A stretch of DNA of 63,971 bases, filler included, from Rhabdomonas costata (taxonomy: Eukaryota): the NCBI GenBank assembly GCA_019059605.1. It is 34 parts of 34 records of this genome, joined end to end, with 100 filler letters (N's around TTAATTAATTAA, not from the genome) between each part and the next. Parts side by side here need not be neighbours in the genome. Positions count along the whole stretch, not along the records: positions 13,202 to 14,986 come from JAHMHO010009085.1; 33 more parts are not named here. The stretch is one strand, 5' to 3'. Within the stretch, counting starts at the first letter, position 1. Every line of letters starts with the position of its first letter. Below are positions 13,102 to 40,231 of this stretch, piece by piece. The translations under genes were made by a program, and so were the position numbers. The notes under the pieces were generated by a model. The model searched no databases. It had not been told where the DNA came from and saw only the letters and a program-made list of their open reading frames with translations.

Positions 13102-13251
13102 NNNNNNNNNNNNNNNNNNNNNNNNNNNNNNNNNNNNNNNNNNNNTTAATTAATTAANNNNNNNNNNNNNNNNNNNNNNNNNNNNNNNNNNNNNNNNNNN
13201 NTTTATATATTATTTATTGTAAAATAAATTTAAATCTTGTCACATATTAGA

Positions 13252-14748
13252 ATGGACTATTACAAAAAATATCTTAAATATAAATCTAAACATAATGAAT
13301 TAAAAAAACAATATAAAAATATACATACTGGCGGAGGACTAGATATTTCAATTCAACAATTATTTAATTTTAGTAATCAATGTTCTTTTACACATTTTTC
13401 AAAAAAAATATCATATACACATTCATCTTTAATTTTTCCAAGATTACCTGTTTTAATTTTAGATGCATTTTGTAGAGAATATGATACAAACGAAGAATTT
13501 GTAGATCTTGTTCCTATTGTATCATTAAATATAGAGACATTACAACACAAAAAAGCCAACAACGAGTTTCCTGATACTATAAATTTTTCTGTTGGAGCTT
13601 TACTTAATTACTTACGATCTAAACTCGATGAAGAAACATATAATAAGCAGTTTAGAAAAAATTTTTACATACCACATAATTTCAACAAATCAATAACAAA
13701 ACCAAATATATATAATTGTAAATATTATCATTTTAACGAAGTAGTTAGGTTAATTAAAAAAGAAAAAAATAATAGAAATTTAGAATATGAAAAAATAAAA
13801 GAATCTGCTGATATTTTTACATTACAATCAGTTGAAGATTTTTTGAAAATTTGTGATAATAACAAAATGTTATACGTTAGTAAATTAGAACAAATATATG
13901 GTTTTAACAATTTAGATATACAAATAAACAATATTATAAGTCATATAAATCAAATGAAAGTATATGTACCAGATAATACGGTCGAATGGTATACAAGAAT
14001 TTTTCATTCTTCACAAGATAATAAATATCATAAAAATTTGAAAAATAATTTTGCAAATAAAACTTTTTTTACGCAAATTAAAGATAAATTTCCTTTTGAA
14101 ACATTAACAGAATATGCAACTAGTGTGTTTGTATTTCAAAAAGTATATATGTTAATTAATGAAAATGGTAACATATCAAATTCGTTAGAATTTGGTGTTA
14201 TTTCTGCATCTGAAATCGATTTTACGGCATATGATATATCAATTATGTTTAATAATTTGGGAGGTGGTAATAAAGATGAAATAATGAAATTACAGTTTGG
14301 TTCACATGTATTTGGTGGGGAATCAAAGTATAATAGTATAAAAAAAATAACACAGAATATATTTTCTATATGTCCTGAATTTAGTAAATATATACAATCT
14401 AATAAAATTATCGACATATATGAGAAAGAACAAGCAATATCATACTTAAATTCTTTAATACTGCAATGGATACCTAAACAATATTATTTAGATGGATTAT
14501 TGATTAATGACTTACAAAGATATATTGATTCTACCTACAATATCACAGCTGTTATCAACATTATCAGAACTAATTTACTTCAATATGAAAAATGTATAGA
14601 TATACCACCACAACGATTAATACTTAAAAAAAAACAAGAACCAACATCTAATATACAAATGGTAAATAGTGACGAATCAATAACAGTAACAGTTAAATTA
14701 CAACAACTCAAACAAAGATATACAACTTTTTTTTACAAATATTTTTAA
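13252..14748 (+). CDS. Giant-virus-like (Mimiviridae/Klosneuvirinae) hypothetical protein, 498 aa
   Basis: Intronless ORF with ATG at 13252 in a very AT-rich contig. N-terminus MDYYKKYLKYKSKHNELKKQYKNIHTGGG matches the KYLKYKxKY...GG motif. Composition is rich in Asn, Ile, Lys and Tyr. Confidence 0.8.
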   Translation: MDYYKKYLKYKSKHNELKKQYKNIHTGGGLDISIQQLFNFSNQCSFTHFSKKISYTHSSLIFPRLPVLILDAFCREYDTNEEFVDLVPIVSLNIETLQHKKANNEFPDTINFSVGALLNYLRSKLDEETYNKQFRKNFYIPHNFNKSITKPNIYNCKYYHFNEVVRLIKKEKNNRNLEYEKIKESADIFTLQSVEDFLKICDNNKMLYVSKLEQIYGFNNLDIQINNIISHINQMKVYVPDNTVEWYTRIFHSSQDNKYHKNLKNNFANKTFFTQIKDKFPFETLTEYATSVFVFQKVYMLINENGNISNSLEFGVISASEIDFTAYDISIMFNNLGGGNKDEIMKLQFGSHVFGGESKYNSIKKITQNIFSICPEFSKYIQSNKIIDIYEKEQAISYLNSLILQWIPKQYYLDGLLINDLQRYIDSTYNITAVINIIRTNLLQYEKCIDIPPQRLILKKKQEPTSNIQMVNSDESITVTVKLQQLKQRYTTFFYKYF

Positions 14749-14782
14749 TATATGTAAAAAACATAATTATAATCATTTACAT

Positions 14783-14986
14783 ATGATGCCGATTGGTATT
14801 GAGTCAAGTCTTGCTAATATATATGATAATACTTTAAAAAATTTAATAATAAAAGCTATCTTGGAAGCATTAGTTGATACTTTTGATACATCGCAGATTG
14901 ATAATGTATATTTTTCAAAACGATCTGTTAATGAAGAATTATTAATACAATTATTAGAACAAAAAAGTTATATAACTACAAAACAC
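14783..14986 (+). CDS. Partial ORF in the same AT-rich viral-like contig, truncated at the contig end
   Basis: ATG 34 bp after the previous stop; open to the linker (MMPIGIESSLANIYDNTLKNLIIKAILEALVD...). Confidence 0.55.
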
Positions 14987-21127: not shown

Positions 21128-24100
21128 GCTGATATATCAATAAAATGATACAATCAGCTTAGATTCCTGCAAGGGACCATCTATAACAGCTTCCACTTAT
21201 TGACAGTACACAGTAGGCCAGGCTTGCCACTGTGCACTTTGGTCTTCAGCTCAAAGCCACATTTGGAGCACTTGGAAGGCGTCTCTCCGAGAACTCCACA
21301 GCCCCTCAACCACTCTCGGAGCTTTGCTTTGTCACTGCACAGCTAACAAATCATAAAGTGTCAACATGAGAAATTAAAAGAGCCTTAAAAACAGGTACAC
21401 TGCTGCAGGAGTGCCAGACATATTTGTCTGGGGATTGGGAGCTGTCTGAACTGGAGGTCCACACGTCGCTGTATCAATGTTCTTGATCATCTCCTGAACG
21501 TCATTGCGCGCAGACAGCTTCCTCTGCTTCCACATTTTCCTTTATTGGTTGGCGGCGAGCAGCGCACGCATGTAAAGATTAAACGTTTCTACCTCTTATA
21601 GACTATGGAGGCCAGATATATGGGATTGTGCTCCTTCATTGATATTACAGCAGATTGTTTAGGTACTGGCTGAGGAGGAAGAGGAGGAGCAGTCGTACAC
21701 TCACCGTTCTTCCATAAATATTAGATAATAACTCTACTTGTGCAAGACAAAATTGTTTGAAATGGCAACATGTGTGGATAAGAGAAGCATTTTCCAATTC
21801 TGTAGCGGACAAACTGTAAGATACCATATGCCTTATGTCAAACTGCCGTGTGACATCTGCTTCGTGGTCAATAACTTCTGCGTATGGCTGCTCTGAAACA
21901 TCTGGAACGGCCTGGGGTTCCAAAAACTAACCACCTCCAGATGATCCAAACGCGTTTGCACCTAGAACACTCAACAAAAGTTGTGGAACAACCCGCACGG
22001 TCGTGTAGCAATGTAATCTAACAGCAATTGCGCAAAACGATTACCACATTGACTCGGTAGTCATGATCAATTATACCCGCTCCAACAGATGTGGTGCTTA
22101 CAGGCCAAACCACTCTGAGTGGTCAATGCTTCCATACACGCCATTTTGTATGGAAAATGCTTAGTCTGTGGGAATGAGCGCGGAAAGGTGTGTGCATCGG
22201 AGCAGGAAAACAGCCTTGCTGCAGGGACATTTTTCCAGCAGAGTTTACACCTCTGAAACCGAAACCTTTTCCGGAGCAGTCAGATGGGTTCCTAGCACAA
22301 GCGGTGTTGACTCAGGCTCACATCACGTTCCTTTGCGGCAGTATTGGGAGTGTGCATTACGTTGCTGGTTGTGTACATCTTCAGAAGGATGAATGGAGTG
22401 TTGGAGCGATGGTACTGAACTCCAGATTGCTTTCGGAACAGGATCACGAGTAAGATTTTTCCAACACTAATAAGCATTGACATCTCAGCACATTTAATCA
22501 GAAAATTTATCTGATGAACAAAAACNNNNNNNNNNNNNNNNNNNNNNNNNNNNNNNNNNNNNNNNNNNNTTAATTAATTAANNNNNNNNNNNNNNNNNNN
22601 NNNNNNNNNNNNNNNNNNNNNNNNNCAGCATGACGATAGGCTGTGAAATTAATGCTAATGGCTGCGAACAATGGCTGTCAAAGCCAATTTTTAGCGGCAC
22701 AAGCACCATGCTGTCCCTTTGGGCGGCCAACCGAATGATGGTACTAGCGAGTATGCGAATTTCTTTACTGGTGGTACACATATATGATGCATCCTGGTTA
22801 CTTCAATGCATTCCAGTATCATCTGTGGGTTCTCTCTTGGGGTTCTAGTGGGTATTTTTACGCATCTAGGGTATTCTGTATTCAGTATCATGTTCCTGGG
22901 TTCTGAATTCTCAACATCAGCCGGCATTTTTAACTGAAGGGAGTATAAGATGGGCATCATGTTCCTGGGTATCATTTCTTACATTCCGGGGTGTCTCTCT
23001 GTGTGAATTTTCGCCCGCAAAAACCGAGGGGGGAATTTTTGCGTGGGTGTTTTGGTTTTCGAAATTCGTGGTTAGGGACTTCCGGAGTCGTGTTTCCTGG
23101 CGTTATGTTATTTTCTGGTGGTCACGGTATCTTGGCTTGTCTAGAAGTGGCTCAGAGGTCTCGGTGGTCATTAGGTATGTTTAACGGTGTTTGGAGGTCG
23201 CGTCTGGGATCTGGAGTGTGGTATTGGTCTTGTGCGTGTTGGGTTGGCGTAGTGGTGTGTATGCGTGGTGATCTTGGTGTCTGGAATTTTCGTGTGTCTT
23301 TGGGTGCTGGTGTGGTGTGCTTGGGTTCACGTTTGTGGTTTGGTCTGTGCGTTGATAGTGCAGAGAATGTCTTTGGTTTTGGTCTTCTCCTGTCGGCATT
23401 CTGGTGTACGTGTTTGGAGCTTGGTGCGTTGGTTCGTCGTGTGTCTAGGTTTAGAAGCAGTGTCGCTGGATGTAGTGGTGTAGTAATGAAACATTGGTGT
23501 AGTGGTTGGACGTGCTGGTGTGGTGCTTCGTCGTGGTGTTGGCGTCAGTTTGCTGAGTGAGTTTTGTGCTATGGCTTCCTCTTGGTTGATTTCCGTTTTT
23601 GCGAGTGTGCCTTGTTTTGTGGGTCGATATTTGTGGTGACTGTGATTGTGGATTTAGGCTGGATGTGGACTCCGTTGGATCGTGCTGGTAATTCCGTGTG
23701 TTTGGTGTGGATGGTGATCTTTTAATGTGTGTCTGGATCGGAGATCACCGCTTCAGCTCTTCTACTACTTGTGGTTTGGTATCAGAACCGCAGGTAGTAG
23801 ACTCCTTAGAAGTTGAATTGCAACATCATGGTATTTGCATCACATCTTGGGCCTTTGCCACGGAGTCATGTCAAGTATGGCATGCCGAAGTAGCATGGGC
23901 ACCTGCGGTAGGATTGCCAAGATGTAGGCCTAAGGTTGGTCTTGCGGTAAGTGCCACATTAGTCACTCATCGTCCATAGATGAAAATGTCATGACAGCAT
24001 CCACTCATTATCCTCCATTACAGTGCGTTTTTCTCACTCTGGGGTGGTGGTGATGTGTATCGTGGTACTGGGAGCTGAGGTGGAGGGGAAGTCATAGCAT

Positions 24101-40003: not shown

Positions 40004-40231
40004 GACGTGGTGATCGGATGATGCCAGGACAGTTGCTTCGCGTGTGCTGTGTGTGTATAGAGGTTCTGTGTCTATGGTGCCGTATCTGTCTCTTGTATCT
40101 TGGGGATCAGGAGGCGAGACGTGGTGATCGGATGATGCCAGGACAGTTGCTTCGCGTGTGCTGTGTGTGTATAGAGGTTCTGTGTCTATGGTGCCGTATC
40201 TGTCTCTTGTATCTTGGGGATCAGGAGGCGA
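40004..40231 (+). repeat. Perfect 114-bp tandem duplication
   Basis: 40004-40117 is identical to 40118-40231. Confidence 0.95.

Follow-up and report, generated by a model that had tools for sequence, protein, structure and literature searches.

Fragments of giant viruses are a common kind of finding in eukaryotic genome assemblies, where viral contigs or insertions are recognised as AT-rich pieces among protist host contigs of higher guanine plus cytosine (GC) content. For kinetoplastids, the example of a giant virus is Bodo saltans virus. The present analysis concerns a window of 63,971 nucleotides (nt) from the assembly of Rhabdomonas costata (GCA_019059605.1), composed of 34 contigs of 1782-1794 bp each with N/TTAATTAATTAA spacers between them. 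One of these contigs (JAHMHO010009085.1, positions 13202-14986 of the window) resembles the fragments described above in being AT-rich among contigs of higher GC, and differs from them in being limited to 1.8 kb, with a single orphan gene and no marker gene. The protein encoded by this gene begins with a short module rich in tyrosine and lysine followed by a pair of glycines (GG), which is referred to here as the tag.

Two further described systems are relevant for comparison. The motif AAAATTGA is reported to lie upstream of 45% of the genes of mimivirus and 35% of those of Cafeteria roenbergensis virus (CroV) and to be tied to early expression (PMC5294985). For the macrodomain protein MavL, its description gives the motif [VIL]xGxGxGx[FWY], followed approximately 90 residues on by WDxx[SA]xPGN[DE][FY][FWY] (PMC10951314).

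A low-GC contig of probable giant-virus origin

We infer that a giant virus of the Mimiviridae type (Imitervirales-like) is the probable source of contig 13202-14986, because of the base composition of this contig and of a tag signature that was tested across sequence collections, the contig itself possessing no hallmark gene. Its GC content was found to be 0.224, compared to 0.454-0.604 for the remaining 33 contigs, which agrees with the sequence-only reading of this DNA in which it was the sole AT-rich contig of the 34. That reading had also described an open reading frame (ORF) of 498 amino acids (aa), here confirmed as ORF1 with its ATG at 13252 and a TAA at 14746-14748, and had termed the contig intronless and gene-dense, a description that is true insofar as approximately 97% of it is taken up by one gene. 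ORFs on the minus strand reach 93 aa at most.

The N-terminus of ORF1 reads MDYYKKYLKYKSKHNELKKQYKNIHTGGG, the tag being MDYYKKYLKYKSKH…GGG. Comparison with tag-bearing ORFs of giant viruses in IMG/VR, found in bins of giant virus metagenome-assembled genomes (GVMAGs) and in large uncultivated virus genomes (UViGs), showed a shared arrangement of Met with 2-12 further residues, a core of YKKY[LIVM]KYKxK[YH], and GG 4-14 residues on, together with low GC and the absence of AAAATTGA upstream. The head of the window's protein consists of three residues (MDY), which is the modal length, and its GG lies 12 residues past the core, within the range observed. Several IMG/VR ORFs start with the identical sequence MDYYKKY[LI]KYK, among them those of loci L029, L111 and L114. 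In AlphaFold2 models of low confidence, the tag takes the form of a helix (H2-25 and H3-24). The likeness is confined to the tag, the bodies of these proteins being unrelated to that of the window's protein.

The tag as a marker of Mimiviridae-type viruses

The back-translated pattern YKKYxKYKxK[YH] was run over the whole of IMG/VR and over prokaryote and metagenome collections. There were 114 matching stretches in IMG/VR, compared to three in a prokaryote genome collection of 596 Gb that covers 185,579 species of bacteria and archaea. None of these three prokaryote stretches possesses the tag architecture, two being 11-aa frames and one lying inside a frame of 45 aa. GVMAG-named contigs carry 51 of the 114 viral tag loci. 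Most of the others are located on low-GC contigs with lengths of up to 1 Mb, many of these contigs measuring between 100 kb and 1 Mb. The median GC of the tag loci was 0.23; two loci at GC 0.44-0.45 with an atypical RYKKYIKYKDKH look like chance matches.

Capsid_NCLDV, a family named for the nucleocytoplasmic large DNA viruses (NCLDV), was detected over its curated cut-off in all three of the non-GVMAG tag records searched, which share a near-identical tagged protein and are thus not independent, and in none of 14 control genomes. The tag was also identified on viral records of 1,021,348 bp and 617,453 bp and therefore is not restricted to the klosneuviruses or to any one subfamily. In the metagenome scan it was found on a 20.6-kb contig of the Joint Genome Institute (JGI; L118) with a GC of approximately 0.22, on which the tagged ORFs adjoin long ORFs read by eye, with no family search, as DnaJ, RFC, SNF2 and an M16 peptidase.

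The numerous stretches in IMG/VR (51 of them in GVMAGs), the few in prokaryotes and the capsid-positive records make the tag a good empirical marker of viruses of the Mimiviridae type. The claim, made from the sequence alone, that an N-terminus of the form YYxKYLKYKxKY…GG is a signature of such viruses is thus upheld by the 114 IMG/VR stretches against three from prokaryotes. A literature search using motif strings and keywords, with supplements and subscription journals outside its scope, returned no description of the tag.

Two adjacent tagged ORFs of 116 and 125 aa were observed at L118:10001-10798. The second of these is rich in cysteine and histidine and resembles an ORF at L114:4736-5104.

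Architecture, cargo and promoters of tagged genes

Tag occurrences in the giant-virus contigs numbered 120, of which 69 were N-terminal (at most 14 residues from the start), 48 C-terminal (at most 30 residues from the stop) and three internal. A GG follows the core in 51 of the 69 N-terminal occurrences. Among 45 distinct complete ORFs with an N-terminal tag, the head measures 3-13 residues (mode 3) and GG is situated 4-14 residues past the core in 34. For the C-terminal form, 18 of 36 distinct ORFs have GG 1-10 residues before the core, the background for GG in a 20-aa window being 2.5-3.9%. At either terminus, GG therefore faces the side of the body.

The bodies to which the tag is attached were found to be unrelated to one another. 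They include protein kinases (Pkinase, four ORFs), LRR, PI-PLC, ADPrib_exo_Tox, thioredoxin, NUDIX and DHH proteins, deubiquitinases of the UCH (two ORFs) and OTU types, ankyrin repeats, a glycosyltransferase and phosphatases. The tag itself is not covered by any Pfam family, since such a family would match all members and the largest tally over the tagged ORFs was four.

Across 114 loci, 126 of the 653 ORFs of at least 150 aa were preceded by AAAATTGA at a distance of no more than 100 nt. By comparison, it was identified upstream of one of 43 N-tagged genes and none of 32 C-tagged genes (1/75 together), a depletion with a Fisher p of approximately 7e-6 for two sets that partly overlap. This suggests that tagged genes are expressed at an intermediate or late stage.

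Neighbouring pairs of ORFs with an identical tag-plus-leader and differing bodies were observed at five loci (L011, L031, L052, L055 and L081). Such pairs suggest local duplication or exchange of the 5' end that encodes the tag.

These features can be accommodated in a model of tag function. The contig would stem from a Mimiviridae-type virus that occurs at low abundance within or alongside the sequenced organism. What it carries is the initial ~580 codons of one gene. The product possesses a 28-residue N-terminal module, consisting of a predicted basic helix rich in tyrosine and lysine (YYKKYLKYKxK[YH]) and then a GG hinge. In giant viruses, this module is found at one or the other terminus of numerous effector-like enzymes that are unrelated to one another and are encoded by genes devoid of the early promoter. 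The tag may accordingly be a basic amphipathic helix that acts as a position-independent signal for the targeting, tethering or packaging of non-early, possibly virion-loaded, proteins that manipulate the host; alternatively, GG could be a cleavage site.

In its most specific form, this proposal states that the tag is a position-independent basic amphipathic helix signal, perhaps cut at GG by a viral cysteine protease, that marks non-early enzymes for host manipulation that are virion-loaded or tethered to membranes, and that the gene of the window represents a new family of tagged effectors that is related to arginine-specific ADP-ribosylhydrolases. As a joint claim this is speculative, and it is unlikely that all of its parts hold together.

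A single gene with a change of reading frame

The sequence-only reading had placed a second ORF 34 bp downstream of the first. An ATG (14783) does exist at that spacing, 34 nt past the stop of ORF1, and opens a frame of 68 aa (ORF2) that runs off the end of the contig. As a separate gene, however, ORF2 did not stand, as its frame opens as early as 14690 and a single related protein, P0003 (described below), shows homology that is continuous across the interval. The match of ORF2 to P0003 (residues 1-63 against 432-492) has an E-value (E) of 5e-10, which improved to 9e-17 on addition of the stretch upstream of the ATG. Translation of that upstream stretch (…KDIQLFFTNIFNICKKHNYNHLHMMPIG…) aligns with P0003 residues 409-436; read from 14690, the translation …FFTNIFNICKKHNYNHLHMMPIG… pairs with …IFSNIFNVCVNNGCQSLHMIPIG… of P0003, the alignment starting at residue 409. 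The last residues of ORF1 (…LKQRYTTFF…) agree with P0003 as far as the point at which the alignment of the second frame takes over.

ORF1 and ORF2 are thus read as parts of one gene, because the homology to P0003 carries on across the 34-nt "intergenic" gap in the downstream frame. On this alignment, the contig holds a gene of ~580 codons with one frame change, which falls within eight consecutive thymines (Table 1). Because the contig ends within it, the gene is predicted to lack its last ~125 residues at the C-terminus.

An inverted repeat spanning the stop of ORF1 had been considered as a 3' hairpin in the style of Mimivirus (z -2.4, with 6 of 200 shuffles as good). It was dropped as a terminator because it lies inside continuous coding sequence.

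Table 1. Positions of the features identified on the low-GC contig, numbered along the whole window
Feature	Position	Strand	Details
Low-GC contig	13202..14986	+	1785 bp, GC 22.4%, 1 of 34 contigs
5' flank	13202..13251	+	50 nt, without AAAATTGA; too short for judging the promoter
N-terminal tag	13252..13338	+	Met + 2 residues, core YKKYLKYKSKH (residues 4-14), GGG at residues 27-29
ORF1, first reading-frame segment	13252..14748	+	498 aa, tag included; residues 45-383 match P0003 37-318
Second reading-frame segment	14690..14986	+	Open to contig end; includes ORF2 (ATG 14783); aligns with P0003 409-492
T8 homopolymer, site of frame change	14727..14734	+	The two frames overlap at 14690-14748
15-nt inverted repeat spanning the ORF1 stop	14729..14761	+	Inside continuous coding sequence

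The gene body and its relative P0003

When 1.84 billion representative proteins were searched exhaustively, one match to the gene was obtained, namely P0003 (617 aa, E 2.5e-19), a singleton cluster derived from one Logan contig of 6,093 bp. The aligned region of ORF1 (Table 1) showed 28% identity to P0003 at 2e-30 with BLASTP. P0003 bears the same terminal tag with GG, and is colinear with the gene of the window from the tag to residue 492. The two differ in that P0003 is one uninterrupted protein, whereas the window's copy is frame-changed in the T8 run and cut by the end of the contig. Furthermore, identity between them is only 28-38%. Insertions occur in the window's copy at approximately residues 120-160 and 185-215, and PIGTGAF of P0003 corresponds there to a degenerate PIGIESS.

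Searches against family databases returned nothing usable across ORF1, ORF2 and P0003 (PHROGs, NCBIfam and Pfam). With Pfam at E up to 1, no family was obtained for ORF1 or P0003, and ORF2 gave only TrpP at 0.14; PHROGs and NCBIfam gave no match at E <= 0.05 for the proteins of the window. Word-indexed protein searches found no relative of the gene, with P0003 residues 380-617 retrieving P0003 alone. Searches of PDB sequences resulted in chance rows only (E 0.25-0.71), and the ESM Atlas held no usable match for ORF1. By these searches, the gene body is an orphan that forms a two-member family with P0003.

A MavL-like macrodomain as a functional lead

A weak lead to the function of the gene body was obtained from the C-terminal part of P0003. 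For residues 380-617, the ESM Atlas listed MavL macrodomain clusters first (0.87, 189 of 256 features). In comparison to the MavL and DUF4804 families (PF24754, PF16062) of arginine-specific macrodomain ADP-ribosylhydrolases, for which the motifs are those given above, P0003 contains M-x-P-x-G-x-G-x-F at 432-440, W-E at 551-552 and then G-V-N-D-F-F at 569-574. It differs from these families in being without the first glycine of motif 1 and in a spacing of 20 from W to N, compared to eight. Of the five specified positions of motif 1, the diphosphate loop, three are kept in P0003 (MIPIGTGAF) and one in the copy of the window (MMPIGIESS), which moreover ends before motif 2, the catalytic loop.

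A number of results count against this lead. The ESM Atlas score lies under the line of 0.9 set by the tool. No Pfam match to PF24754 or PF16062 was obtained for ORF1 or P0003, and the C-terminal 223 aa of P0003, searched with Pfam at E up to 10, gave only PEX6_N (0.22). There was no PDB sequence match for the macrodomain. AlphaFold2 models of ORF1 and of P0003 (the latter from a three-row alignment) had predicted local distance difference test (pLDDT) values of 31.5 and 32.7, respectively, and both were unusable. A search for the MavL family in one virus record found none, a result that is uninformative as the 14 control genomes were also silent.

It is therefore only tentatively suggested that the full-length relative P0003 is MavL-like, at a confidence somewhat short of even. 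The copy of the window was not filed as a MavL-like enzyme because one of five positions of motif 1 is kept and the sequence ends before motif 2; it may be inactive.

Origin of the contig

Several observations weigh against a giant virus as the source. Hallmark genes of the NCLDV (major capsid protein (MCP), PolB, A32 ATPase and VLTF3) are absent from this single-gene contig, as are a usable terminator signal and, with a 5' flank of only 50 nt, the early-promoter motif AAAATTGA, which tagged genes in any case rarely possess. Scans of IMG/VR with ORF1, with P0003 and with their alignment gave no confirmed relative of the gene body. A search by tblastn of 117 tag loci gave matches limited to the tag, with none of these loci (0/117) encoding a relative of the window's protein beyond it. 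Two conserved motifs of the body were found in zero and four stretches of IMG/VR, the four being unrelated. Moreover, the only relative, P0003, stems from a Logan assembly of unknown origin. Finally, the specificity of the tag was measured on viral and prokaryote collections, and AT-rich eukaryotes may use it as well. Against these stand the composition of the contig and the tag, and the alternatives to a Mimiviridae-type virus can be compared on the same evidence.

One alternative is that the contig represents a fragment of a giant virus endogenised in the host genome, with the frame change being real decay. The reading frame is indeed broken in the T8 run, and the contig is a short one that stands alone among host-like contigs. 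However, neither end of it has a host-like flank, and GC remains steady at ~0.22-0.24 throughout. The frame change is also the only one, with no other stop in ~580 codons, and is situated in a homopolymer, where sequencing errors concentrate; it could be either an error of that kind or a real disruption. Endogenisation is considered unlikely.

A second alternative is that the contig originates from an AT-rich cellular organism, such as a contaminating or ingested eukaryote, or that it holds a gene of the host, the protein being merely tag-like. This would be consistent with a body that has no relative among giant viruses, with the ease with which sequence rich in K, Y and N arises in AT-rich DNA, and with tag scans that covered viral, prokaryote and metagenome collections. 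On the other hand, the 33-nt pattern would occur by chance at a rate on the order of 1e-10 per site in DNA of 22% GC by our own estimate, and the match extends to the position of the core (residue 4) and the spacing of GG, with the same tag present on P0003. A cellular source is accordingly thought improbable.

It is also conceivable that the contig belongs to a small element that travels with mimivirids (a virophage, polinton-like virus or transpoviron) and not to the giant virus itself. Such elements are AT-rich and use the expression signals of their giant virus, and a contig of 1.8 kb cannot separate the two. Tag loci on records of informative size are, however, mostly from records of 30 kb to 1 Mb or from GVMAG bins, and no virophage or transpoviron gene was found on the contig, leaving this explanation with little probability. 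Origin from an AT-rich bacterium, phage or organelle genome (e.g. a mitochondrion or kinetoplast) would fit the low GC and uninterrupted coding sequence, but it is highly improbable given the lack of a real tagged ORF among the three pattern stretches from prokaryotes, the absence of PHROG and NCBIfam matches noted above, the absence of a tblastn match to the window's protein in 50,697 phage records, and the lack of any organelle gene, tRNA or rRNA family in an Rfam search of the window.

A Mimiviridae-type virus thus remains the probable source. At 1.8 kb and with no host flanks, the contig does not suffice for defining a virus or for claiming a virus-host pair.

The other contigs of the window

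The host-like contigs look to be largely non-coding or interrupted and provide no taxonomic clue. Rfam identified no RNA family over the window, and Pfam no family among the ten longest stop-to-stop frames (183-344 aa) of these contigs. Short spliced-leader motifs had no match in the window, which is uninformative for 34 random contigs.

Three further features were observed among these contigs. At 40004-40231, a host-like contig contains a perfect tandem duplication with a unit of 114 bp (2.0 copies, 100% match). A (TTGAG)n microsatellite of 23 copies is located at 7208-7323. The contig surrounding it showed strong strand asymmetry at 7001-8000 (GC skew 0.36, AT skew -0.43), with a similar skew at 23001-24000.

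Implications

The contig can serve as a pointer: should further low-GC contigs exist in the full assembly, an associated mimivirus-like virus could be retrieved from it. The terminal tag possibly matters more than the fragment, as it can be checked in any giant-virus genome. It singles out enzymes such as kinases, deubiquitinases, an ADP-ribosyltransferase and phospholipase C, and it avoids early promoters. Should the tag prove to be a signal for targeting or packaging, the delivered effectors of a giant virus could be listed from sequence.

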